A stretch of 11,131 bases of DNA, taken from the UHGV virus genome UHGV-0072311. One strand, 5' to 3'. This DNA comes from a virus. A program made the translations under genes and the position numbers. Shown piece by piece: positions 163 through 10,772 of the stretch (within the stretch, counting starts at the first letter, position 1; every line of letters begins with the position of its first letter). The notes below the pieces were generated by a model that saw nothing but the letters and a program-made list of their open reading frames with translations, searched no databases and was not told the DNA's origin.

Positions 163-164
163 GT

Positions 165-192
165 CCATAAGAAAGCCCCTCCGGAGAGGGGC
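165..192 (-). terminator. Terminator-like hairpin on - strand (GCCCCTC / CGGA / GAGGGGC, then UUUCUUAU)
   Basis: Seen in sequence: 7-bp GC stem 175-181/186-192 with a tetraloop. On the - strand it is followed by a T-rich but interrupted tract (rc of 165-174). It lies downstream of the pR'-like promoter in the late direction. Confidence 0.3.
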
Positions 193-625
193 TGGAGAGT
201 GGCGCTATGTGCCATTGCATGGTGCCGGGTGCCTCCCGGTGAGTTCAGTATCAGCACCTGAACCCGCACAGAAAGGATAAGGGTCGGTGACAAAACACCA
301 GTTGCTGATTGCCCCTCCGCACAGGGGGATTCACCATGCCAGTTTCTTTTAACAAACTCCCCGCAAACCAGACAACAGTCAACCGCCTGAATTGTGAGGT
401 ATTTAAAAATTTCAACGGGTAACTGATACCCTGCTAATCGCCTGATGATGGATTGTAATCAACAACAGAAAGCACCATTTCTGGCGTTAATTTTATTTCT
501 TTCATCGCTTTACCTTAGGGATAGAGCCTGTTCGCGTAGATATGACAGCCAAGAGCGGAGCGATGTTTCCACCACCATATCTCAGGCCCATATCACTAAG
601 ACTCTTGTTTTGATTGCACGCGAAT

Positions 626-2663: not shown

Positions 2664-3341
2664 TCAGTAGCGATGCAGTGAAGGCGGCAACTCTTTGTTC
2701 TTAAGCCTTTCCCATGCCAGAAGGTTCGTCGGCCCGTCAGGCTCATAAATATCTATATCCCGCGTGTGATTAATTAAAACGCCCCTCGCCCTCCCGATGA
2801 TATACGAGAACTCATAGCCGTAGTCGTGGCATATGCCGGAATAGCCAGACTGAATCAGTTTTAATGCGGGATACAACTCACGGAACAATGCCTGTGAGCG
2901 GTTGGCATAATCCCACAGCCATACAAGGCTGTCTGTTTCTTTTGCGGAAAGCCCGTTGAGCTTCTTCTCTTGTTTACCAGTATTTTTCTCGCACTGGCTG
3001 AAATAGCAGTCTTCCAGTTTTTCGAACACATCCCACGCCTGATCGGTTTCTAGCATTTTGGCGTGACGGGCTGCGCCTCGTTCTGTCCAGAGGATGAGGT
3101 GCTTTGCTCGCGGTGCAACTAAGTTACTGTGAGTAACCTTGTTCTTAAATTCCCGCAATTCACCACCCTCCAGTTTAAAGTAGTGCTTACCACAAACAAA
3201 ACGCCCGGCATTGCGCGTATAGTTCACTTTAATGTTGTTGGTCTCAGTGCCGTAAAGTCGTGCCAGTAGTTCGGTAGTGATGACGGGGATGTGGTTATAG
3301 GTAATTGGGGAAAGAGTTTCAACGGAAATTTGAGTCGCCAT
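2664..3341 (-). CDS. ORF6N-domain DNA-binding protein (Roi/antirepressor-like)
   Basis: 225-aa ORF whose N-terminal segment [40 protein letters not shown] fits the ORF6N (KilA-N-related) pattern LYGV.T..LN..V.RN..RF. SD GAGGG lies 8 nt upstream. The Roi assignment is from memory and not verified. Confidence 0.6.
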
Positions 3342-3503
3342 GACAACGCCCTCTGGTTGATGAATTTAACTATCACCACCGTCAGGTGCAAATCTTTGGG
3401 TGGTGAGACGTACAGGGTTTGCACTACCGGATCAACCAACCGGCGAGCCTTTCGGCTCCCCCATACGCCCCACCATAATTCAGATGTGCGTGTGCTTACG
3501 ACA

Positions 3504-3527
3504 ACAAAAAACACGCTCGCGGCGTGT
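3504..3527 (-). terminator. Intrinsic terminator on the - strand (ACACGC-CGCGA-GCGTGT then U5GUUGU)
   Basis: Seen in sequence: 6-bp stem 3511-3516/3522-3527, followed on the - strand by TTTTTGTTGT. It would stop - strand transcription that runs antisense through the + strand island before it reaches the ORF6N gene. Confidence 0.5.
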
Positions 3528-3609
3528 GTCTGTCGCGGTTGAATATCCGGGGTGCAAATCCCGACGCCAGATTTTGCTGGCGTGCGAAGAATATAATCCC
3601 GGATATGTG

Positions 3610-3650
3610 TTGTCGTCAACATACCTTGAATGTATATAACAAATTTGTTA
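3610..3650 (+). promoter_or_regulatory. Candidate promoter (TTGTCG, 17 bp, TATATA) and 14-bp perfect palindrome TAACAAATTTGTTA, a likely operator for the toxin-antitoxin operon
   Basis: Seen in sequence: -35-like TTGTCG at 3610-3615 and -10-like TATATA at 3633-3638. The perfect palindrome at 3637-3650 overlaps the -10 and the first toxin ATG, which is the usual layout for autoregulation by an HTH antitoxin. Confidence 0.4.
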
Positions 3651-3991
3651 TGTTTACTCTCATGAACTACATTATCGAATACTACAGTGACGAGGTTGAA
3701 GCTGAGATCCTTTCTCTTCCTGAGACCTTACAAGCCCGGTACATTCGGTACACGGAGAAAATGCGTATTTACGGAGCTAATCTTGGTTCCCCGCATACAG
3801 AGGCATTTGGCGACGGTTTGTTTGAAATCCGCCTTAAGGGCTCGGAAGGCATAGGGCGTGTTTTTTACTGCACGCTAAAAGGAAAGCGAATCATTATGTT
3901 GCATAGCTTTGTAAAGAAAACGCAAAAAACTCCACCTGCCGAGCTTAGAAAAGCTGAAACCAGAATGAAGGAGGTTAAGCATGACTGGTAA
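3650..3991 (+). CDS. Type II toxin, RelE/ParE superfamily (Gp49/HigB-like 'addiction module killer')
   Basis: The product carries the signature ...DGLFEIRLKG...GRVFYC...RIIMLHSFVKKTQKTPPAEL... typical of Gp49-like toxins. The toxin gene is upstream and its stop overlaps the antitoxin start by 11 bp. The start is uncertain between the ATG at 3650 and the in-frame ATG at 3662; neither has a clear SD. Confidence 0.75.
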   Translation: MFTLMNYIIEYYSDEVEAEILSLPETLQARYIRYTEKMRIYGANLGSPHTEAFGDGLFEIRLKGSEGIGRVFYCTLKGKRIIMLHSFVKKTQKTPPAELRKAETRMKEVKHDW

Positions 3992-4289
3992 ACGTACCCC
4001 ACCTACCATGACACACGATGAAATGGTAGAAAAAATGTTGTCTAACCCCGCAGTAAAAGCAGAATACGACGCCATCGCCGATGAATTCGCACTACTTGAT
4101 GAAATGCTGGCAGCACGAAAAGAAGCTGGCTTAACCCAGGCTGAAGTTGCTGAACGTATGGGAACAAAAGCGACTGCGATAACCAGAATGGAAAGCAATC
4201 TTGCATCAGGTACAAGCGGCCCATCATTTGCCACACTGAAAAAATTCGCCCGTGCTACAGGGAAAAAACTCCAGATCCGCTTCGTTTAA
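3981..4289 (+). CDS. HTH (XRE-type) antitoxin, HigA-like 'addiction module antidote'
   Basis: 102-aa product with the helix-turn-helix motif GLTQAEVAERMGTKATAITRME and a C-terminus ending LKKFARATGKKLQIRF, typical of antitoxins paired with Gp49/HigB-like toxins. A strong SD GGAGG lies 6 nt before the ATG. Confidence 0.8.
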   Translation: MTGKRTPPTMTHDEMVEKMLSNPAVKAEYDAIADEFALLDEMLAARKEAGLTQAEVAERMGTKATAITRMESNLASGTSGPSFATLKKFARATGKKLQIRFV

Positions 4290-4301: not shown

Positions 4302-4326
4302 GCGCCGTCATTCTGGCGGCGCTTTA
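4302..4326 (+). terminator. Weak terminator-like hairpin after the antitoxin gene
   Basis: Seen in sequence: 8-bp stem with one G-U pair (4302-4309/4315-4322) followed by TTTA. The U-tract is short, so this is low confidence. Confidence 0.3.
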
Positions 4327-4343: not shown

Positions 4344-4589
4344 TCACCGGATTACCACATCCCACTCCGGCTCCTGCCATCTCAAATCCGGTGAATCATT
4401 TCTCTCAGGAATAACCATTACGTCCTTTTCCCTTCGCTCCCTTTCTATCGCCATCACAGCCAATGCTGCAACCATGATGTATTTTTGTTCGTCGGTTCCT
4501 GTTTCATAACGACGCATGAGGGTAAACTCGGGGCGATCAGTAACCTCAATGATTTCGTTAATTTCTTTAATTTCGCGAGGAATATCCAT
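4344..4589 (-). CDS. Hypothetical acidic protein (81 aa)
   Basis: The ORF begins MDIPREIKEINEIIEV... and has an excellent SD, AAGGAG, 8 nt upstream on the - strand. Its ATG overlaps head-to-head with the ATG of the DUF4145 gene at CCATGG (4586-4591). I recognise no family. Confidence 0.45.
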   Translation of the reverse strand: MDIPREIKEINEIIEVTDRPEFTLMRRYETGTDEQKYIMVAALAVMAIERERREKDVMVIPERNDSPDLRWQEPEWDVVIR

Positions 4590-5262
4590 GGGTTTAGTCT
4601 CCTTTGATATCACATGCCCGCACTGTTTAAAAGAGCGAGCTGTTATTGAGGCATTTGCCGAAAAACAAATTGAAAAAACACCTTTTTTTAACGTCGCTTT
4701 TGTATGCAGAAGTTGTCATCGAGGAGGTGTTGCTATTGTTGAAATCCCATCAGACCACTATCACGGTCCCATGGCGGAAAGCCAGAAAAAAGACCTCGAT
4801 ATTCTGATTTCAGGAAATAGCCAGTACCGTTTCCGCAAGATCTATCCTGTGGTCAAAAAAATTACCGCACCAGAATATACGCCCCCGGTTGCAGACCGTA
4901 CTTTTGTTGAGGCAAAAGAGGATTTACAGAGGAGGCGGTACGACACAGTGGTTATTCTTTGTCGCAGAGTCCTCGATATCTCCACGAAAAAACTGCTCGG
5001 CGATGAAGCAGGAAAAGAATCGCTGTCGCAACGTATTCAGATGATTTACAAAAAAGGCCTGATCACTGAACAGATGAAGGAATGGGCTCATATTGTACGA
5101 ATTGATGCCAATAAAGCAGTTCATACAGATGAAGTTTTCACACCAATTGAGGCAAGCCAGATCCTGAGTTTTACCGAAATGTTTTTAGTCTACGCCTTCA
5201 CTCTGCCTGCAATGGTGGAAGCCAGACGTGAACAAAAAAGATCAGATTCAGCCTCTATATGA
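4588..5262 (+). CDS. Zinc-ribbon plus DUF4145-like (HEPN-superfamily-like) protein; candidate abortive-infection/defence effector
   Basis: The N-terminus has two Cys pairs (CPHC ... CRSCH), consistent with a zinc ribbon. The C-terminus carries EWAHIVRIDANKAVH followed by a hydrophobic helix, matching the DUF4145 pattern wA..iR..GN.aaH as I recall it. SD GAGG lies 5 nt before the ATG at 4588; the upstream in-frame ATGs at 4516 and 4549 lack one. Confidence 0.65.
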   Translation: MGLVSFDITCPHCLKERAVIEAFAEKQIEKTPFFNVAFVCRSCHRGGVAIVEIPSDHYHGPMAESQKKDLDILISGNSQYRFRKIYPVVKKITAPEYTPPVADRTFVEAKEDLQRRRYDTVVILCRRVLDISTKKLLGDEAGKESLSQRIQMIYKKGLITEQMKEWAHIVRIDANKAVHTDEVFTPIEASQILSFTEMFLVYAFTLPAMVEARREQKRSDSASI

Positions 5263-5284: not shown

Positions 5285-5305
5285 CCCCCGTCATTCACGA
5301 CGGGG
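5285..5305. other. GC-rich hairpin between convergent genes (CCCCGTC-ATTCAC-GACGGGG), no U-tract
   Basis: Seen in sequence: 7-bp stem overlapping the stop codon of the - strand gene and lying between the convergent DUF4145 and HTH genes. With no U-run on either strand it is not a canonical intrinsic terminator. Confidence 0.3.
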
Positions 5306-5726
5306 AGAACATCAATCCCTCTGCACTCCCTCGCCAGAATGCCAGCACACGCTGCATCGTTTCGCTGTTACGGCACTCGCGACAAATTGTGTTGTAGCGT
5401 CTGTCGTAGCGCCGTATTTCCCCATCTGGTAATGCCCGGATAAGGTCTGGATCAACGACAACCGGTTTCTTCGACTTTGCCCTTGAGAGTTTTTTGCGGG
5501 CATTTTGCCAGTCCTTACGAGCCTGTTCAGACGGGAATACTCCGTAACCGGAATTGTAAACATCACCACTGGCGGCCAGCTCCATGCATAAACGACCGAC
5601 AGACGCATGACTGACACCAATTTCATCCGATAACTGCCGAATCGTGCCTCGTCCGTTAAGGCGTACGAATTCCACGATCAGCCCCTTAATTTTTTCCCGC
5701 TCTTCTGGTGTAAATGCTCTTGTCAT
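5295..5726 (-). CDS. Hypothetical HTH-containing protein (143 aa)
   Basis: The ORF has an SD GGAGG 5 nt upstream of the ATG at 5726; the GTG at 5732 used by the ORF track is less likely. A helix-turn-helix-like segment (GTIRQLSDEIGVSHASVGRLCMELAASG) is present, and the C-terminus has a CRECRN motif. It sits in the nin-equivalent region. Confidence 0.55.
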   Translation of the reverse strand: MTRAFTPEEREKIKGLIVEFVRLNGRGTIRQLSDEIGVSHASVGRLCMELAASGDVYNSGYGVFPSEQARKDWQNARKKLSRAKSKKPVVVDPDLIRALPDGEIRRYDRRYNTICRECRNSETMQRVLAFWRGSAEGLMFSPS

Positions 5727-5741
5727 AAGCACCTCCGGAGA

Positions 5742-6512
5742 TCACTTTGTTGTCGGTGAATGAACCGGAATATCAGCAATCGAACTGAAAATATCCCGGT
5801 GTTTATTCAGCTCCCGCAGCGCGGCGCAGACTCGCTCCCACTTCTGAACATCACTTTTCGCCCTGCGCAGCGCCAGGTTTGCCCTGCGCAGGGACGGAAA
5901 AATCAGCTCATCTGCTTGCGTTTCGGTAAACGATGGCAACGACTGCACAATGTCCGCCACAGTTTCTGTTTTAATTTCTTCCTGTGTTGCGGCTTCCCGG
6001 ACTGGTAACGCAGCACCTGCTGGCTGAGGAAAGGCCTTACCATCATTTTCCGTTACCGGCGCGGTTTTCGGATCTGCTGGTAAATTACCCCCCGGCATGC
6101 AGTAACGAAATTTACCGTTCTGATTAACGCGTGCCAGCCGCCCCGTTGCGGTTACCACCGCCAGCGTGGAAGCAACCTTGCGAGTGGTAACTCCGAACTT
6201 ACCCGCTATTTCTTCACAGGTTTTAGCCCCCTCCTGAGAGATAAACTCAATCATCATGTCAGCGCTAACTTTTGGAGCGACCTCTTCGGTCAGCATATCC
6301 TGTGTTTCAGATTTTACTGGCCGCTCTTCGGTTACCCCAGCTTCACCTTCGACAGCCAGAAACCAGGTGTGACCCGTTTTATCAACAACGCCATTTTTTT
6401 TGAGCTCCCACAGTTCGTTGAGAACTTCTTCACGGCTGATATCAAGCCGCGCCGCCAGTTCAACAGAATTGGCTTTTCCCATCGCTTTCAGTGCATGCAA
6501 TACGGTTTCCAT
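5742..6512 (-). CDS. Hypothetical protein with two winged-helix-like segments (256 aa)
   Basis: Two segments resemble wHTH recognition helices (SVELAARLDISREEVLNELWELKKNGVV and TCEEIAGKFGVTTRKVASTLAVVTATGRLARV). It lies immediately downstream of the DnaC-like gene with a 25-bp gap. I recognise no specific family. Confidence 0.55.
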   Translation of the reverse strand: METVLHALKAMGKANSVELAARLDISREEVLNELWELKKNGVVDKTGHTWFLAVEGEAGVTEERPVKSETQDMLTEEVAPKVSADMMIEFISQEGAKTCEEIAGKFGVTTRKVASTLAVVTATGRLARVNQNGKFRYCMPGGNLPADPKTAPVTENDGKAFPQPAGAALPVREAATQEEIKTETVADIVQSLPSFTETQADELIFPSLRRANLALRRAKSDVQKWERVCAALRELNKHRDIFSSIADIPVHSPTTK

Positions 6513-6537: not shown

Positions 6538-7278
6538 TCACATACCCTGACGTCCAACGTTTGACCGCCAGCTCTCCCAGTTAAAATTCACCCAACGACC
6601 ACCGTTCATGGTCATCCGGTCCATAATCCTCTCACCAAGAAGCGTGCTCATTGCGGCATGATTCAGGTTTGTCAGCATCCCGACACTGCGCAGTGATGCC
6701 GTCCGGCGGTCAACAATCTGGTGCAGTACCACCTGCTCGTTTTTCGTCTCACGCTGGATGCCAATTTCGTCAAGAACCAGGAGGTCCACTTCGCACAGTT
6801 CACGCAAAAATTTTTCCCCTGACAGTCCGTCGTCATAGCTGGCATGTAACGCGCTCATCACATCCGCCACGGTGACCACTATCACGGATTTACCGGCCTT
6901 CAGCAGACGATTACCCACAGCCGCCGCCAGATGATTTTTTCCGGTTCCCGGATTCCCGCTGAACACGAAGTTTGTATAACCGGTCATCAATTCATCGACA
7001 ATGGATTTCGCCTGGCTCAGAGCATGGCGCTGACCGTCGTTCTGCACCCGGTAGTTCCCGAATGAGCACTTCCTGTGAAGCGGCTGGATGCCCGAACGAT
7101 TCAGGATTTTTTCAACCCGCGTCTGGTGATTCTGGCGGTTAACTTCCTCGCTGCGCTTCCGGCCCTCAGCCAGTTGCCATTCCCGCCATTCGTCGGTCGT
7201 CCGGAACGGTGCTGCCACGTGCGGTGGTGCCAGACGGCGCACCCGTTCAAGAATCCCTCCTGTCGAAATGTTTTTCAT
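6538..7278 (-). CDS. DnaC-type replicative helicase loader (AAA+ ATPase, IstB-like)
   Basis: The product is closely similar along its length to my recollection of E. coli DnaC, including the Walker A motif GNPGTGKNHLAAAVG, the SGIQPLHRKCSFGNYRV region and the C-terminal MLTNLNHAAMSTLLGERIMDRM. SD GGGGG lies 8 nt upstream. Confidence 0.9.
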   Translation of the reverse strand: MKNISTGGILERVRRLAPPHVAAPFRTTDEWREWQLAEGRKRSEEVNRQNHQTRVEKILNRSGIQPLHRKCSFGNYRVQNDGQRHALSQAKSIVDELMTGYTNFVFSGNPGTGKNHLAAAVGNRLLKAGKSVIVVTVADVMSALHASYDDGLSGEKFLRELCEVDLLVLDEIGIQRETKNEQVVLHQIVDRRTASLRSVGMLTNLNHAAMSTLLGERIMDRMTMNGGRWVNFNWESWRSNVGRQGM

Positions 7279-7284
7279 GGCTGA

Positions 7285-8367
7285 TTACCCCCTGAAACCC
7301 GGCGGAATTTCGGTGTCCGGTTCAGAAATGTGATTCACGCAACGCAGGCTGACTGCGCCAGCCTTCGGCAGCGACCACGGATTTTCGAAATTCCTGTTCG
7401 GGCCAAAAAACGTCGATGCCTGCTGAACAAATTCAGTTCCCGCTTTCCCGGTAGCCTCCAGGTATCTTGCGTAACGCCTCACGCCATCCAGCACGACATC
7501 CGGTGACACCCCTTCGCGTAATCTGGCCCTCCAGGCATTGAACGCGGATTTCTTCGGGTTTGACCCTGCCCGATGCGGATATTCACGCCAGACCCGTTCG
7601 AACACGTCAGGATAATCAACTCGTCCCGCAGACGGTCCCGGCATCGCCCGGGTTAACCCAATCGGCTTCCCGCTCATCGCGGAATCGGCTTCAGGCTGCT
7701 GCGGTTGGCGTTGTTGCTCCGGTTCGACGATCAGCACCTGCTGCACACAACGCCCGGAATCTGCTTCCGGTGTCGTGCCATCTGGTCCTGGACGTTCAGT
7801 CAGAACAGGACAAAAATCCCCCTGTGGGTCCGTGGCGATTTTTTCGCCATGGACCAGAAGGGTTTTATCCCTTTCCTGTTCCTGTTCCTGTTCCTGTTCT
7901 TGGCTTGAAAGGGGCTCTGAAGGGGCTTCAATTTTCCGACATGATTCACGTCTGACATCCAGGTGGAAATCATCCTTATATCTATCATAAAAGGATGATA
8001 AAAAAGGATTTTCCAGCAACGCGGAATATTCATTTCTTACCCCAGCACAACGGTTATCGCCAGGTTTCAGCGATTCACCAACCTGCCATGCTGCCATTTC
8101 ATGCACCCATACAACCTCAGAATCATGGTCATAGCTGCAAAAACCAGCCTCGCAAGCCATTTGAAGCCCCTTAGAAGCCCCTTCAGGAGCAAGTCCGGTT
8201 TCGTGAGCAATGTACAAAACAGGCAGGTAATAAAGGCCCAGCATATTGGAATGAGGCGAGGTCATCATATACAACGCCACTACCATACATTCCGGACCAG
8301 ACTTCCTTAGTTTTCGCCCTGTATCGCCTAACCAGAACTGAGGTGAAATTGTTGCGTAATTACGCAT
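7285..8367 (-). CDS. Putative replication initiation / replisome-organiser protein (non-lambda-O type)
   Basis: The position (after the cII-like gene, directly before the DnaC-like loader with a 6-bp gap) matches the lambdoid O/P slot. The C-terminal motif FERVWREYPHRAGSNPKKSAFNAWRARL resembles the F..FW..YP.K..K..A..AW motif I recall from phage replication initiators. The gene contains an (EQ)n linker and AT-rich palindromic DNA. The family assignment is not verified. Confidence 0.6.
   Translation of the reverse strand: MRNYATISPQFWLGDTGRKLRKSGPECMVVALYMMTSPHSNMLGLYYLPVLYIAHETGLAPEGASKGLQMACEAGFCSYDHDSEVVWVHEMAAWQVGESLKPGDNRCAGVRNEYSALLENPFLSSFYDRYKDDFHLDVRRESCRKIEAPSEPLSSQEQEQEQEQERDKTLLVHGEKIATDPQGDFCPVLTERPGPDGTTPEADSGRCVQQVLIVEPEQQRQPQQPEADSAMSGKPIGLTRAMPGPSAGRVDYPDVFERVWREYPHRAGSNPKKSAFNAWRARLREGVSPDVVLDGVRRYARYLEATGKAGTEFVQQASTFFGPNRNFENPWSLPKAGAVSLRCVNHISEPDTEIPPGFRG
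7626..7718. repeat. Copy A of a ~70-bp direct repeat (copy B at 8398-8466); copy A carries a 23-bp internal insertion
   Basis: Seen in sequence: ccgcagacggtcccgg...aacccaatcggcttc...aggctgctgcggttgg(c/t)gttgttgct is shared at about 90 percent identity. Copy A lies inside the initiator coding sequence; copy B lies in the spacer upstream of it. Confidence 0.8.
7872..7899. repeat. Hexanucleotide microsatellite (CCTGTT)n, about 4.5 copies, encoding an (EQ)n linker on the - strand
   Basis: Seen in sequence: ttcctgttcctgttcctgttcctgttc at 7872-7899, translating to QEQEQEQEQE within the initiator protein. Confidence 0.9.
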
Positions 8368-8515: not shown

Positions 8516-8587
8516 GCCCTGCCTGAATATCAGATATTCATCAGGATTTGCTCAGAACGTCCGGCCCCAACCGGACGTTTTTTATTT
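8508..8587 (+). ncRNA. oop: oop-like antisense RNA overlapping the 3' end of the cII-like gene
   Basis: Seen in sequence: GGATTTGCTCAGAACG followed by a perfect 9-bp stem AACGTCCGG / CCCCAA / CCGGACGTT and TTTTTTATTTG at 8556-8587, with an upstream hairpin TGAATAT-CAG-ATATTCA at 8524-8540. Order and sequence closely resemble lambda oop RNA and its terminator as I recall them. The 5' end and promoter are not mapped. Confidence 0.6.
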
Positions 8588-8826
8588 GCATGAACGTTAA
8601 TGGCATGCTGGAAAGCCCGGCTGATCGGACTGATATCAGATGCCATCTGGAACGCGCATAAAATCGCCGCGATGTATCGCCAGTCGGTACGACTGACCTT
8701 CGATTCATGGCAGCCAATCATCTTTGCCAGTCCCCTTTGCGTCAGAGCTGACAGGTTGATGAGTAAATCTGTTTCTGCGCGATCAACGTCACGCTGTGAT
8801 AGTTTGCTGTAACTTGTTTGTGTCAT
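8530..8826 (-). CDS. cII: CII-family transcriptional activator (non-lambda allele)
   Basis: The position (first gene after cro/nutR) and the C-terminus ...ANKKRPVGAGRSEQILMNI resemble lambda CII (...TNKKRPAATERSEQIQMEF). The N-terminal two-thirds differ from lambda. An antisense oop-like terminator is embedded in the 3' end, as in lambda. Confidence 0.7.
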   Translation of the reverse strand: MTQTSYSKLSQRDVDRAETDLLINLSALTQRGLAKMIGCHESKVSRTDWRYIAAILCAFQMASDISPISRAFQHAINVHANKKRPVGAGRSEQILMNI

Positions 8827-8964: not shown

Positions 8965-9165
8965 TTATGCAGTTGTTTTTTTGTTACTTGGGAAGGGCTT
9001 TATTTCTTCCGCATAAACGCTTCCATCAGCGTTTATAGTTAAAAAAATCTTTCGGCCTGCATGAATGGCCTTGTTAATCGCGCTTTGATATACGCCGAGA
9101 TCTTTAGCCGTCTTGGTTTGCCCAAAGCGTATTGCATAATCTTTCAGGGTTATGCGTTGTTCCAT
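8965..9165 (-). CDS. cro: Cro repressor (lambda-type)
   Basis: 66-aa product essentially identical to lambda Cro as recalled ([64 protein letters not shown]). SD AAGGAGG lies upstream. Confidence 0.95.
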
Positions 9166-9262: not shown

Positions 9263-9979
<717 letters not shown>

Positions 9980-10010: not shown

Positions 10011-10772
10011 ATGACACAGTTTCAACTTGCATTAATCGCTAGAGAAGTTGATGGAGAAGTCATCCATCTTCGCACCAAAGACGGATACATCAATGCCACC
10101 GCGATGTGCAAGTCTGCGGGGAAGCTACTTGCTGACTATACACGACTAAAAACAACACAAGATTTTTTTGATGAATTATCACGCGATATGGGGATTCCCA
10201 TATCGGAGTTAATTCAATCATTTAAAGGCGGAAGAGCAGAGAATCAAGGGACTTGGGTTCATCCAGACATCGCAATTAATTTAGCTCAGTGGCTATCTCC
10301 AAAATTTGCAGTGCAAGTATCGAGATGGGTGCGTGAGTGGATGTCAGGTGAAAGAGCGCCTGCCGAACTCCCTATCCACCTTAAGCGGTATATGACAAAC
10401 CGAGGCAGAGTTCCTCATACGCACTTTTCTATGCTTAATGAACTGACGTTTAACTTGGTTGCGCCACTTGAACAGGCCGGATATACGCTGCCAGAAAAAA
10501 TGGTCCCTGATATTTCAGAGGGTAGGGTTTTCTCGCAATGGCTCCGTGACAACCGGGGGGTTGAGCCGAAGACATTCCCAACATATAACCATGAGTACCC
10601 AGATGGCCGGACATTCCCGGTACGTCTATACCCAAACGAATATCTTGCAGATTTCAAACAACACTTCAACGAAGTGTGGCTGCCTCAGTACGCTCCTAAA
10701 TATTTTGCTGAACGAGACCAAAGGGCATTGACGTTGATTGAGAAAATCATGCTACCTGACCTTGATTCCTAA
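10011..10772 (+). CDS. KilA-N-domain protein in the cI operon, at the position lambda uses for rexA/rexB
   Basis: 253-aa ORF starting 32 bp after the cI stop with SD AGGA. The N-terminal ~115 aa fit the KilA-N pattern (GYINATAMCKSAGKLLADYTRLKTTQDFFDEL...GTWVHPDIAINLAQWLSPKFAVQVSRWV). I recognise no family for the C-terminal ~135 aa. A strong terminator follows. Confidence 0.75.
   Translation: MTQFQLALIAREVDGEVIHLRTKDGYINATAMCKSAGKLLADYTRLKTTQDFFDELSRDMGIPISELIQSFKGGRAENQGTWVHPDIAINLAQWLSPKFAVQVSRWVREWMSGERAPAELPIHLKRYMTNRGRVPHTHFSMLNELTFNLVAPLEQAGYTLPEKMVPDISEGRVFSQWLRDNRGVEPKTFPTYNHEYPDGRTFPVRLYPNEYLADFKQHFNEVWLPQYAPKYFAERDQRALTLIEKIMLPDLDS

Follow-up and report, generated by a model that had tools for sequence, protein, structure and literature searches.

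A conserved start-codon overlap joins a putative RAZR-like defence gene to a small early gene of lambdoid prophages

The window, i.e., the whole stretch of 11,131 nt analyzed here (UHGV virus genome UHGV-0072311), contains two divergent genes that meet at their start codons. The + strand gene encodes a protein with a zinc ribbon and a DUF4145/HEPN domain (the large protein), while the - strand gene encodes a small protein with three predicted helices. The features assigned to the two genes and their surroundings are as follows.

4302 to 4322, + strand: 9-bp hairpin between the higA stop and the stop of the small ORF, followed only by UUUA
4344 to 4589, - strand: gene for the 81-aa small protein (phrog_8371; WP_001624507.1), stop at 4344-4346; based on PHROG and coding signature
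4419 to 4589, - strand: conserved three-helix core of the small protein, residues 1-57; based on AF2 and a conserved motif, the C-terminal tail being variable
4577 to 4581, + strand: Shine-Dalgarno sequence (SD) GAGGA of the DUF4145 gene, 6 nt before the + strand ATG and inside codons 3-5 of the small ORF
4586 to 4591, both strands: junction CCATGG, in which the start codons overlap head-to-head by 2 nt (4588-4589); read from the sequence
4599 to 4604, - strand: SD AAGGAG of the small ORF, 9 nt before the - strand ATG and inside codons 4-6 of the DUF4145 gene
4588 to 5262 including the stop, + strand: zinc-ribbon and DUF4145/HEPN gene, probably RAZR-like, 224 aa (WP_032144013.1); based on ORF, Pfam, PHROG and AF2
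4588 to 4752, + strand: N-terminal Cys4 zinc-ribbon domain, about residues 1-55; based on invariant Cys and AF2 strands
4615-4617, 4624-4626, 4705-4707 and 4714-4716, + strand: codons of C10, C13, C40 and C43
4885 to 5259, + strand: C-terminal HEPN (DUF4145) domain, about residues 100-224
5098 to 5124, + strand: putative catalytic motif R171-IDA-N175-KAV-H179 (R-x7-H); based on invariance and alignment to RAZR
5286 to 5305, either strand: hairpin between the convergent DUF4145 and DUF977 genes, with no U-tail on either strand

The first-pass annotation had placed both starts within CCATGG, and the sequence confirms this reading, with the + strand ATG at 4588-4590, the - strand ATG at 4589-4587 and 2 nt common to both. 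The 225 aa it gave for the large protein should read 224, as the 225th codon is the stop. Both starts were assigned by comparison and not by ORF length. An upstream ATG at 4516 (248-aa ORF) was excluded as the DUF4145 start, given that M1 and an MGxLS N-terminus are conserved family-wide, and a GTG at 4613 (89-aa ORF) was excluded as the start of the small ORF, since the ATG lies within CATG in all distinct paired loci. The same 2-nt overlap is already present in the RefSeq/PGAP annotation of the two proteins, and the annotation of Shigella phage 75/02 Stx also carries the same two genes with the same 2-nt overlap.

The large protein carries CPHC (C10, C13), CRSC (C40, C43) and WAHIVRIDANKAVH (R171 to H179). 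The DUF4145/HEPN identity suggested by the first-pass annotation was borne out by the profile check, in which Pfam DUF4145 (HEPN clan CL0291) matched residues 118-197 over profile positions 11-88 of 88 (E=3.9e-9, 36.9 bits versus a gathering cut-off of 23.1); PF13643 is present in all 83 database homologues of the large protein. The R-x7-H motif is invariant family-wide, as are R171, N175 and H179 in the homologue alignment, and C10, C13, C40 and C43 are invariant among 40 homologues. The protein is also a full-length member of phrog_1305 (E=1.3e-63, profile positions 11-225 of 226), whose label, "DNA binding protein", probably stems from the zinc ribbon. In the AF2 model (mean pLDDT 90), the zinc ribbon has beta strands at residues 4-6, 20-27, 33-40 and 46-52; this domain gave weak profile matches to the RPB9 zinc ribbon, which is also the comparator in the paper on RAZR (PMC13017515), and is the most variable part of the family, with a mean pairwise distance of 0.56 versus 0.32 for the HEPN domain. 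The nearest solved folds for the C-terminal domain are those of HEPN toxins (5yep, 7ae2/7ae6/7ae8). The association of DUF4145 with restriction, which had also been brought forward, is inapplicable at the present locus.

The idea that the large protein is a defence effector has an experimental precedent in RAZR (PD-T7-4), a ring-activated zinc-finger abortive-infection RNase of the same build and with the same R-x7-H spacing (Zhang et al., Nature 2026, PMC13017515; PDB 9y9c). RAZR-Ec and RAZR-Kv have been shown to cleave ssRNA non-specifically and to cause abortive infection through a catalytic R and H, and either R146A or H154A abolishes defence (PMC13017515). RAZR becomes active when it assembles, as a 24-mer, into a ring that surrounds the portal or Gp77 rings of a phage; D179, D180 and R184 lie at the oligomer interface (PMC13017515). 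It is a one-gene system that is non-toxic alone, even when overproduced, and its safety depends on a host without large protein rings (PMC13017515).

RAZR and the large protein are alike in that each is one polypeptide of about 220 aa, in which an N-terminal Cys4 zinc ribbon opening with a CPHC knuckle is followed by a linker and a C-terminal DUF4145/HEPN domain with an unusual R-x3-N-x3-H, so that two defining features of RAZR, the Cys4 zinc ribbon and the C-terminal DUF4145/HEPN domain with R-x7-H, are both found in the large protein. R171 to H179 are in register with R146 to H154 of RAZR (RIVGNQAVH); moreover, RAZR and the family of the large protein share a zinc-ribbon half that is the most variable part and an occurrence in Enterobacterales mobile elements. 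By sequence, however, neither the PD-T7-4 model nor RAZR itself gave a significant match over the full length. The PADLOC PD-T7-4 model failed to give a stringent match to the window protein (E=0.0022, 15.5 bits, positions 64-158 of 211), although PD-T7-4 matches were obtained for 22 of 40 family members, with E-values as low as 2.8e-7. A phmmer search of PDB with the large protein gave no match, the family profile aligned in register with PDB 9y9c at E=0.14, and hhalign against RAZR gave 71.6% probability and E=3.5e-5 over the HEPN core only. The large protein also has about 25 more residues N-terminal to the catalytic motif than RAZR, and the RAZR interface residues D179/D180/R184, which lie beyond the alignable core, are unrecognizable in it. 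Furthermore, RAZR is a stand-alone gene, whereas the clade of the large protein has a conserved head-to-head partner and is thus not a single-gene system, even though unpaired sister lineages exist. Phage Cartapus, which carries its homologue in the P2 cos/portal hotspot, was considered as a strict PD-T7-4 bridge and rejected, as were homologues from other genera; Cartapus and the Klebsiella, Citrobacter, Enterobacter and Yersinia homologues gave E-values from 1e-6 to >1e-3 and are not strict PD-T7-4. Judged from these comparisons, the large protein appears to have a homologous domain and an architecture shared with RAZR and yet to belong to a separate clade, and may best be called RAZR-like rather than a RAZR member. 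It is probably a RAZR-like defence RNase, where the presumed RNase activity, Abi phenotype and trigger are extrapolated from RAZR, a distant relative by sequence, with no more than about 28% identity over the HEPN core.

The small ORF is a real gene. Its product is a full-length member of phrog_8371 (E=6.8e-56, positions 1-81 of 81); neither phrog_8371 nor phrog_1305 is a group with a tested function. Across a diverse set of homologues, variability at the three codon positions was 0.33/0.27/0.52 and pN/pS was 0.43, compared to 0.98 and 1.09 in the shifted frames, a coding signature that equals that of the neighbouring gene. The E. coli alleles alone offer 18 variable sites for dN/dS, which are too few to decide; the frame is open in all alleles examined. 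Homologues that are about 35-50% identical and keep the motif DRPEF-L-x-RYE...QK...A-L-I-G-K-L-I-E-x-DR were found in six genera, including Yersinia, Serratia, Proteus, Arsenophonus and Enterobacter. An AF2 model, made from a shallower alignment than the diverse locus-derived one, predicts helices at residues 3-16, 20-30 and 33-57 with pLDDT >90 and a tail with pLDDT <55. The description of the product as a small acidic protein holds for the E. coli allele only, since family pI values span 4.3 to 10, and the acidic tail, for which disorder is predicted, varies between members. Family members are about 55-90 aa long, and the stop of the small ORF often overlaps the start of the next operon gene by 4 or 8 nt. 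No similarity of the small protein to a known inhibitor, a regulator or a fold of defined function was detected; it has no Pfam match and is not an MNT nucleotidyltransferase. One profile match, to the RFX1 winged-helix DNA-binding domain, was weak and non-significant (E=0.96). Database entries for the small protein are from E. coli and Yersinia only. The small ORF is truncated in one GenBank record and omitted from several source annotations.

The DUF4145 gene is the sole gene that runs against the direction of the lambdoid early-right operon, in which cro, cII, O, a DnaC-like gene, DUF1627 and DUF977 are followed by nin genes and Q. As it is the lone opposite-strand gene in nearly all loci, the first-pass suggestion of a moron fits well, and members of the DUF4145 family are also found in other known moron or defence slots, i.e., int/xis, lysis/terminase and P2 cos/portal. 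The small gene, on the other hand, is co-directional with the early operon and is a member of this phage operon, not part of the moron. The hairpin at 4302-4322 (-16.5 kcal/mol; z=-3.6 on the + strand and z=-1.0 on the - strand) is kept in phiSTEC1589 despite a different TA module, and is at best a weak terminator of the + strand TA operon. The hairpin at 5286-5305 has -14.5 kcal/mol on the + strand (z=-2.7) and -16.5 kcal/mol on the - strand (z=-2.2).

The CATG overlap is kept in 42 of 42 distinct DUF4145 loci that bear the small gene, at about 45-50% protein identity, and is present in 1 of 26 unpaired loci, where the one is a decaying pair (Fisher p about 1e-17, in a test without correction for phylogeny or physical linkage). 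The start overlap exceeds chance, and it is the conservation of the pair and of the CATG overlap that is new here. With the taxonomic range taken from named homologues, the paired genera are Escherichia/Shigella, Yersinia, Serratia, Proteus, Arsenophonus and Enterobacter; the CATG overlap was found in four further genera beyond the 42-locus set. In E. coli, divergent overlaps are rare, accounting for 2 of 663 overlapping gene pairs (PMC4161906). An SD-like tetramer or longer precedes the DUF4145 gene at 24 of 33 paired junctions, and an antisense SD for the small ORF is present at 22 of 33 paired compared to 2 of 20 unpaired junctions. Moreover, Leu codon 4 of the DUF4145 gene is CTC at 23 of 26 paired versus 1 of 14 unpaired junctions (p=5.8e-7, uncorrected for phylogeny), a bias that is gone in each unpaired lineage of the DUF4145 tree. 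Synonymous choice in the RNase gene thus keeps the antisense ribosome-binding site (RBS) only where the partner is present, and the dual-use sequence is under selection. The mutually embedded promoters of the first-pass annotation turned out to be an assumption, as neither a consensus scan nor a PWM scan over 41 loci found a sigma-70-like site that exceeds the shuffle background on either strand. TTGATC-N16-TATCGT recurs at -75 in some loci, where the small ORF has its conserved DQK and RY codons; the site is a poor match in the window, and no promoter is claimed from it.

The paired loci are all found at replication/nin junctions of lambdoid prophages, where 24 families of left neighbours and 22 families of right neighbours surround an unchanged pair. 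In the DUF4145 tree, paired loci occupy a basal, paraphyletic position, within which the small ORF was lost at least 3 times. DUF4145 genes without the small ORF make up whole clades, and those in other genome slots are without it; in one locus (L080), the small ORF is decaying while the RNase gene is intact. Conversely, 16 E. coli loci, which represent two other contexts, have an intact small ORF and no DUF4145 gene, and these solo copies have gained new start codons. Solo loci have a 166-aa gene in place of DUF4145; neither this gene nor the Yersinia neighbours gave a match to a known domain. Divergence of the small protein follows that of the distal HEPN domain (Mantel r=0.82) more closely than that of the adjacent zinc ribbon (r=0.57), in comparisons uncorrected for phylogeny and linkage. 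The two genes therefore form a conserved interlocked module with a real small gene, a conclusion in which we have high confidence, and the conserved pairing suggests that either the small protein or the interlock itself controls the RNase. Linkage of the pair could also reflect shared ancestry and the absence of a recombination-permissive spacer.

Taking the RAZR precedent and the geometry of the locus into consideration, a tentative model, to which we give a little less than an even chance, is that a defence RNase is made in the lysogen, while the small early gene shows the reciprocal pattern of expression and may confer self-immunity on the prophage. The architecture shared with RAZR/PD-T7-4 would make the large protein an abortive-infection RNase produced in the lysogen, in which, by analogy with RAZR, the variable zinc-ribbon domain may sense a protein of the infecting phage, upon which the HEPN domain would cleave RNA via R171 and H179 and thus shut down translation. 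During lysogeny, the geometry predicts that the early operon would be repressed and the RNase gene read. Upon induction or infection, RNA polymerase from pR would run antisense across the whole RNase gene and its initiation region, and the pR transcript would carry the small ORF; since this transcript would be complementary to the 5' end of the RNase mRNA, including the SD, RNase synthesis would fall as the small protein appears. Such reciprocal expression of both genes seems evenly poised between being right and wrong. In the least certain step, the small protein would also neutralize or modulate the RNase and thus keep it from aborting the lytic cycle of the prophage itself, which produces portal and recombinase rings; that the small protein is a self-immunity or anti-RNase factor is possible, at a probability of roughly a third. 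Slightly more doubtful is the specific version in which the small protein is a dedicated antidote, made only when the early operon fires, and together with antisense read-through and RBS occlusion forms a toggle set by the direction of transcription, with the RNase on in lysogeny, and the RNase off and the inhibitor on in the lytic cycle. As RAZR is active and non-toxic as a single gene, its known mechanism can do without a partner.

Several other explanations for the pair have to be weighed. The small ORF could be an unrelated early (nin-region) gene against which a DUF4145 moron was inserted, with the RNase working alone like RAZR and the pair persisting as a frozen accident, only because no spacer lets recombination part the two genes without destroying their initiation regions. 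Such hitch-hiking would agree with the confinement of all paired loci to the replication/nin junction, with the single-gene, non-toxic nature of RAZR and with the DUF4145 clades that occupy other slots without the small ORF, while the intact solo copies in E. coli indicate that the small ORF has a value of its own, and selection on the antisense SD shows only that the small ORF is translated, not that its product interacts with the RNase. However, mosaicism has often swapped the neighbours on both sides, and outside E. coli the pair is unseparated; a split at CATG is mechanically possible, as the solo copies with new starts show, yet it is rare. In addition, linkage alone would not predict that the small protein co-diverges more tightly with the HEPN domain, which is distal, than with the zinc ribbon next to it. 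Overall, such a frozen accident is the principal rival to the reciprocal model, although it seems less likely than not. The small three-helix protein could alternatively bind DNA or RNA and repress or activate the DUF4145 gene; many defence genes have a divergently transcribed small regulator, the divergent layout is conserved along with the effector, and the RFX1 winged-helix match, albeit weak and non-significant, points in the same direction; we consider a regulator improbable.

A classical toxin-antitoxin module of the HEPN-MNT or RnlA-RnlB type, with a constitutively toxic HEPN RNase restrained by a small labile antitoxin, is suggested by the position of a HEPN RNase next to a small protein and by the HEPN toxins 5yep and 7ae2 among the nearest solved folds. 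The genes are divergent and not co-transcribed, though, so that stoichiometric co-expression is not built in; besides, the small ORF decays beside an intact RNase gene in L080 and has been lost in at least 3 lineages, overproduced RAZR is not toxic, and the small protein is no MNT nucleotidyltransferase, all of which makes a toxin-antitoxin module very unlikely. The first-pass annotation had left it open whether the small ORF encodes a partner or an antagonist or is spurious. A chance frame antisense to the region upstream of DUF4145 might explain the narrow database footprint, the lack of a Pfam family and the truncated or absent annotations; it is at odds with a coding signature equal to that of the neighbour gene, with diverged homologues that conserve motifs across six genera, with a confident fold, with an SD upheld by synonymous choice on the opposite strand and with new starts in solo contexts, and is effectively refuted. 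A partner or antagonist, by comparison, stands as a serious hypothesis because the pair and its overlap are conserved across genera.

A prophage with a RAZR-like gene makes rings (portal, recombinase) on induction and thereby faces a self-killing problem. A large prophage-borne clade of the RAZR architecture travels with a conserved, nearly unannotated small gene, start to start, and this small gene represents a testable candidate for switching off or neutralizing the defence in the lytic cycle. Should the antidote reading be true, the solo copies of the small gene in lambdoid phages would be a new family of anti-defence (anti-RAZR-like) genes. Independently of function, the locus provides a rare and well-replicated case of a conserved divergent start overlap, in which synonymous codons of one gene maintain the RBS of the other, and could serve as a model in which to study dual-use sequence and interference in transcription or translation. 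As the small gene was missed or truncated in several annotations, similar partners of defence genes may be systematically overlooked.

Among known systems, HEPN-MNT and other HEPN toxin-antitoxin modules share with the present locus the C-terminal fold and the logic of an RNase toxin. They differ in that the present locus has no MNT partner, is divergent and not operonic, has a partner that is dispensable in several lineages and has a zinc-ribbon sensor added; no adjacent co-transcribed MNT antitoxin was found, the sole conserved neighbour being the divergent three-helix protein. T4 Dmd counters the HEPN RNases RnlA and LsoA, and the LsoA-Dmd complex (5hy3), in which a small phage protein inhibits a HEPN RNase, was among the fold matches. 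Dmd is a protein of the attacking phage, however, and not of the element that carries the RNase, and a comparison of Dmd with the small protein revealed no resemblance in sequence or fold. Coliphages 186 and P2 have switches with face-to-face (convergent) promoters, in which a strong lytic unit interferes with a weak lysogenic one. The present locus is alike in having opposed transcription units with overlapping 5' ends, a geometry that overlapping divergent starts force; what overlaps between the switch promoters of 186 and P2 is untranslated leader sequence, whereas here it is the coding starts and RBSs themselves, and the promoter scans gave no site above background.

Precedents for the self-targeting problem of prophage Abi systems are provided by HepS and BstA/aba. 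HepS of Salmonella prophage Gifsy-1 (Sargen et al., Nature 2026, PMC13043305; PDB 9oik) is without a zinc ribbon and outside the DUF4145 family; its self-protection relies on a non-triggering tail-tip variant and not on a linked gene, and no interlocked partner has been described. BstA/aba is a prophage defence with cognate self-immunity (Owen et al., 2021, PMC8585504) and resembles the present locus in that a prophage Abi protein and a tightly linked element that spares the carrier's lytic cycle are interlocked in one locus. It differs in that aba is a DNA element inside bstA and not a protein, and BstA is a KilA-N protein that acts on DNA replication and not an RNase; immunity at the present locus is hypothesized. 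If the antidote reading is correct, the small gene would represent a third, protein-based route to prophage self-immunity, after BstA/aba and the trigger evasion of HepS.

The window, when read on the minus strand, corresponds to the early-right region of a prophage that is lambdoid and Stx-phage-like. Its sequence matches Escherichia phage PhiR5_2 and several E. coli chromosomes at 100% identity, and the Shigella phages 75/02 Stx and POCJ13 at 96-98%. The features run in the following order:

9266-9979, plus strand, cI
8965-9165, minus strand, cro
8530-8826, minus strand, cII
7285-8367, minus strand, O
6538-7278, minus strand, DnaC-like loader
5742-6512, minus strand, DUF1627
5295-5732, minus strand, DUF977/'LygF'/Ren-like
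4588-5262, plus strand, and 4344-4589, minus strand, the DUF4145 gene and the small ORF, which come next in order
4302-4322, stable hairpin with only a UUUA tail, lying, like the small ORF, between the toxin-antitoxin operon and the DUF4145 gene
3635-4289, plus strand, Gp49/HigB-like and HTH/HigA-like pair, convergent with the small ORF
then, minus strand, antirepressors and NinG, and finally Q at 700-1218

The slot at 3635-4289 holds HigB-like+HTH, RelE+HTH+HTH or TumE+HVO_A0114+HTH in related E. coli prophages (loci L007, L009, L010, L016 and L018) and is therefore a toxin-antitoxin swap hot spot; the module always has the orientation of the DUF4145 gene. Rfam models place isrK at 3506-3583 and a C4 antisense RNA at 3396-3480 (both minus strand), immediately 5' of an ORF6N/P22_AR antirepressor gene (2664-3341, minus strand), with a promoter-like site (TTGACG-18-TATATT, 3619-3590, minus strand) ahead of both RNAs; this stretch is a P1/P7-type C4-ant immunity module within a lambdoid prophage. 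Straight after cI, a gene for a 253-aa KilA-N domain protein (10011-10772, plus strand) is possibly a further prophage defence gene; the post-cI slot is occupied by a BstA_C-domain protein in the Yersinia loci L026-L028, and no BstA_C match to the window's KilA-N protein was found. The sRNA family STnc100 has a strong match (143 bits) at 163-368 (minus strand), downstream of the Q antiterminator gene.

The DUF4145 identity proposed in the first-pass annotation was confirmed by a Pfam match above threshold (E=3.9e-9), and the protein also matches phrog_1305. In an alignment of 40 homologues (37-71% identity), C10, C13, C40, C43, R171, N175 and H179 are invariant. The confident AlphaFold model (mean pLDDT 90.2) shows the architecture and fold of a zinc-ribbon + DUF4145/HEPN protein: a beta-ribbon at the N-terminus and a helical domain at the C-terminus, joined by a linker. 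The sequence features described in that annotation are present in the DNA, except that the product has 224 residues rather than 225. The start region consists of:

4588-4590, plus strand, ATG start of the DUF4145 gene, read from the sequence
4589-4587, minus strand, ATG start of the small ORF, read from the sequence
4577-4581, plus strand, Shine-Dalgarno GAGGA, 6 nt ahead of the DUF4145 start
4604-4599, minus strand, Shine-Dalgarno AAGGAG, 9 nt ahead of the small ORF start

The two ATGs have two bases in common, within CCATGG (4586-4591), and from the Shine-Dalgarno positions it follows that each ribosome-binding site sits within the initial codons of the other gene. The same 2-nt overlap is annotated for both genes by RefSeq/PGAP and in the 75/02 Stx record. 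Divergent overlaps are generally rare: of the 663 overlapping pairs counted in E. coli, 2 are of this type (PMC4161906). Two upstream starts were ruled out: ATG 4516 (plus strand) by the family N-terminus MGxLS, conserved from M1, and GTG 4613 (minus strand) by the small ORF's ATG, which lies in CATG at every paired locus.

While it was initially considered that the small ORF might be spurious, this is refuted by distant homologues, a pN/pS of 0.43 and a confident predicted fold. A phrog_8371 match spans its entire length; no Pfam family was found for the protein, and database searches returned E. coli entries only, to which a profile added Yersinia. Neither a 15-nt in-frame duplication nor a 1-nt deletion close to the 3' end closes the frame in any E. 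coli allele, and of the frames compared the ORF's own has the lowest dN/dS (0.30, from 18 variable sites only). A Yersinia prophage with a DUF4145 homologue 47% identical to that of the window carries a divergent 71-aa ORF with the identical CATG overlap, and its product is clearly homologous to the small protein (MNIPYLSDEIQRMLQNADRPEFNLMQRYETSSDEQK... vs MDIPREIKEINEIIEVTDRPEFTLMRRYETGTDEQK...). Such distant loci gave the decisive evidence for a real small gene. Over 35 distinct sequences, variability by codon position was 0.33/0.27/0.52, and the pN/pS of 0.43 compares with 0.98 and 1.09 in shifted control frames and with 0.36 for the DUF4145 gene at the same loci. In the AlphaFold model, residues 3-57 form a core of three helices with high confidence (pLDDT >90), followed by a disordered tail. 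One allele (L007/L008) repeats ERERM through the 15-nt tandem duplication, and in L016/L017 the 1-nt deletion gives a different tail in place of the last ~8 residues; the C-terminal tail is therefore evolutionarily free and the 55-residue core fixed. The description of the product as a small acidic protein holds for the E. coli-specific tail but not as a family trait (pI 4.3 to 10). In domain, profile and fold comparisons, no resemblance to anything of known function was found.

The small gene is systematically under-annotated in source records; for example, the GenBank entry of PhiR5_2 (L001 5055-5228) shortens it to 57 aa. Gene finders disfavour opposite-strand 5'-5' overlaps, which is a likely reason that it was missed. 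The pair extends beyond Escherichia/Shigella and Yersinia to named genomes of Serratia marcescens, Proteus mirabilis, Arsenophonus and Enterobacter; in these added records the small gene is uncalled and occupies a ~200-nt gap (L142, L143 and L144, ~2300-2500, for Arsenophonus, Serratia and Proteus).

To follow the pair across loci, 80 viral contigs carrying a DUF4145 homologue and 31 carrying a homologue of the small ORF were fetched, and six-frame translations of all loci were scanned with HMMs of both families. After removal of duplicates, 68 distinct combinations of DUF4145 gene and upstream region remained. The small ORF was present in 42, all 42 with the head-to-head CATG overlap; among the 26 without it, the overlap was found only in L080 (IMG/VR 3300050491_000010; Fisher p ~1e-17). 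At the L080 junction (3001), the DUF4145 frame is intact and CATG and a CTC codon are kept, with the small ORF decayed to 32 aa and its motifs degraded; this locus appears to be a snapshot of partner loss.

Where DUF4145 codon 4 encodes Leu, it is CTC in 23/26 paired junctions vs 1/14 unpaired (p=5.8e-7, phylogeny ignored), the sole unpaired case being L080. On the opposite strand CTC is GAG, and the Shine-Dalgarno of the small ORF has GAG as its core. In unpaired lineages the codon is CTT, CTG, CTA, TTA or TTG, and the CTC bias is absent from each independent one. Likewise, an antisense Shine-Dalgarno of >=4 nt occurs in 22/33 paired vs 2/20 unpaired junctions (phylogeny ignored). These patterns are evidence that initiation of small ORF translation is under selection and constrains synonymous sites of the RNase gene.

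At 41 paired loci, crude gene calls gave 24 neighbour families beyond the small ORF and 22 beyond the DUF4145 gene; since the flanking families vary, the two genes move together among mosaic phage genomes. Within E. coli alone the pair adjoins DUF977 in one phage type and Roi/Ea22 in another. The DUF4145 gene is almost always the sole gene opposing a co-directional array, to which the small ORF belongs in direction, its stop often sharing 4 or 8 nt with the start of the following gene. In a neighbour-joining tree of DUF4145 proteins, without support values, the deep branches are paired and at least three unpaired lineages are nested (a 212-aa clade by the small terminase gene, an int/xis-adjacent clade and L078), as well as the decaying L080. 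This topology suggests a paired ancestor and repeated loss upon relocation. Unpaired DUF4145 homologues occupy other classic moron/defence slots (phage Cartapus, L006 162-860; L020-L022; L023-L025, L004 and L141), namely the P2-type cos/portal junction, the space from int/xis to the early-left genes, and that from the lysis genes to the small terminase or HNH gene. Each lies antisense to the genes around it.

By homology, the RNase would be an abortive-infection effector expressed in the lysogen, its zinc ribbon sensing a phage protein and its HEPN site (R171/H179) degrading RNA. Because the divergent starts overlap, the mRNA of either gene must begin inside the other, and the transcripts would therefore be complementary across both initiation regions. 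An early-operon transcript would have to cross the entire RNase gene antisense before reaching the small ORF, and this geometry predicts reciprocal expression, of the RNase during lysogeny and of the small protein during lytic growth. For neither gene was a conspicuous sigma-70-like promoter found; the highest-scoring site in the window has 5.2 vs a shuffle median of 8.2. In several paired loci (e.g., L106, L111, L113 and L115), a promoter-like site, TTGATC-N16-TA(T/A)(C/A)(G/T)T, lies at about -75 from the DUF4145 ATG, coinciding with the small ORF's conserved DQK and RY codons on the opposite strand; its score does not exceed the 95th percentile of shuffles, the window has only a poor version, and it could be either an embedded promoter or a by-product of the protein motifs. 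At E. coli loci the DUF4145 gene is closely preceded by a toxin-antitoxin operon of the same orientation, and as the intervening hairpin has only a UUUA tail, higBA read-through is an alternative source of RNase transcript.

We propose that the small protein may additionally neutralise or modulate the RNase, sparing the prophage's own lytic cycle, which makes ring assemblies of exactly the kind that triggers RAZR, the ring-activated anti-phage RNase. Dmd-LsoA (5hy3) is a precedent for a HEPN RNase inhibited by a small phage protein. Divergence of the small protein follows that of the distal HEPN domain more closely (r=0.82) than that of the adjacent zinc ribbon (r=0.57), a pattern compatible with neutralisation and confounded by linkage and fast zinc-ribbon evolution. 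Linkage is not obligatory, as the small ORF occurs without DUF4145 at 16 E. coli loci and whole DUF4145 lineages lack the small gene. Since each gene also occurs without the other, a classical toxin-antitoxin relationship is unlikely; RAZR alone is not toxic (PMC13017515), which also counts against it. In the main rival reading, which has a fairly low probability, the small gene would be a functionally unrelated nin-region gene, kept locked to the moron by the absence of any spacer. At solo loci, homology to the window ends within the small ORF's first codons, and a new GTG, equipped with a separate GAGG, serves as the start. Most have a 166-aa protein upstream on the same strand, and one has a quite different context. 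This protein, for which no Pfam match was found, substitutes for the DUF4145 gene in L002 (4606-5106, minus strand) and equivalents in L010-L014 and L017, its gene lying on the operon strand and followed by a ~300-nt gap and then the small ORF.

For the self-targeting problem that neutralisation by the small protein would address, two other solutions have been described, BstA/aba (PMC8585504) and HepS (PMC13043305). DUF4145 was already a HEPN family, with zinc-ribbon fusions and dsDNA virus members, in a 2013 survey (PMC3710099), and zinc-ribbon + DUF4145 proteins form a large family, with 3,346 representatives after clustering at 50% (E up to 1e-3). RAZR, formerly PD-T7-4 and described in 2026, is a ~219-aa protein that joins a Cys4 zinc ribbon at the N-terminus to a DUF4145/HEPN domain at the C-terminus, and its defence requires R146 and H154, likewise R-x7-H (PMC13017515). 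Phage proteins that form rings (portal or Erf-like Gp77) become surrounded by a 24-mer of RAZR, which then cleaves RNA non-specifically; specificity is determined by the zinc-finger domain, RAZR's most variable part (PMC13017515). The window protein has the same build, including the CPHC knuckle at its beginning and a motif in register with RIVGNQAVH of RAZR, and its family's zinc-ribbon half is likewise fast-evolving (mean pairwise distance 0.56 vs 0.32). The PADLOC PD-T7-4 model matched the window protein over part of the model only (E=0.0022; best among family members, 2.8e-7), a phmmer search of PDB with the large protein gave no match, the family profile reached E=0.14 against RAZR (9y9c), and hhalign of the HEPN cores gave E=3.5e-5 with 28% identity. 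Judged from these comparisons, the sequence relationship is remote, and the window protein is therefore a distinct clade, RAZR-like in architecture, rather than a RAZR member; ring activation is, by analogy, a lead only. The RNase gene is thus a new, distant RAZR-like relative, and its conserved start-to-start interlock with an unannotated small gene, of which no description was found in the RAZR paper or the DUF4145 literature, is a new variant.
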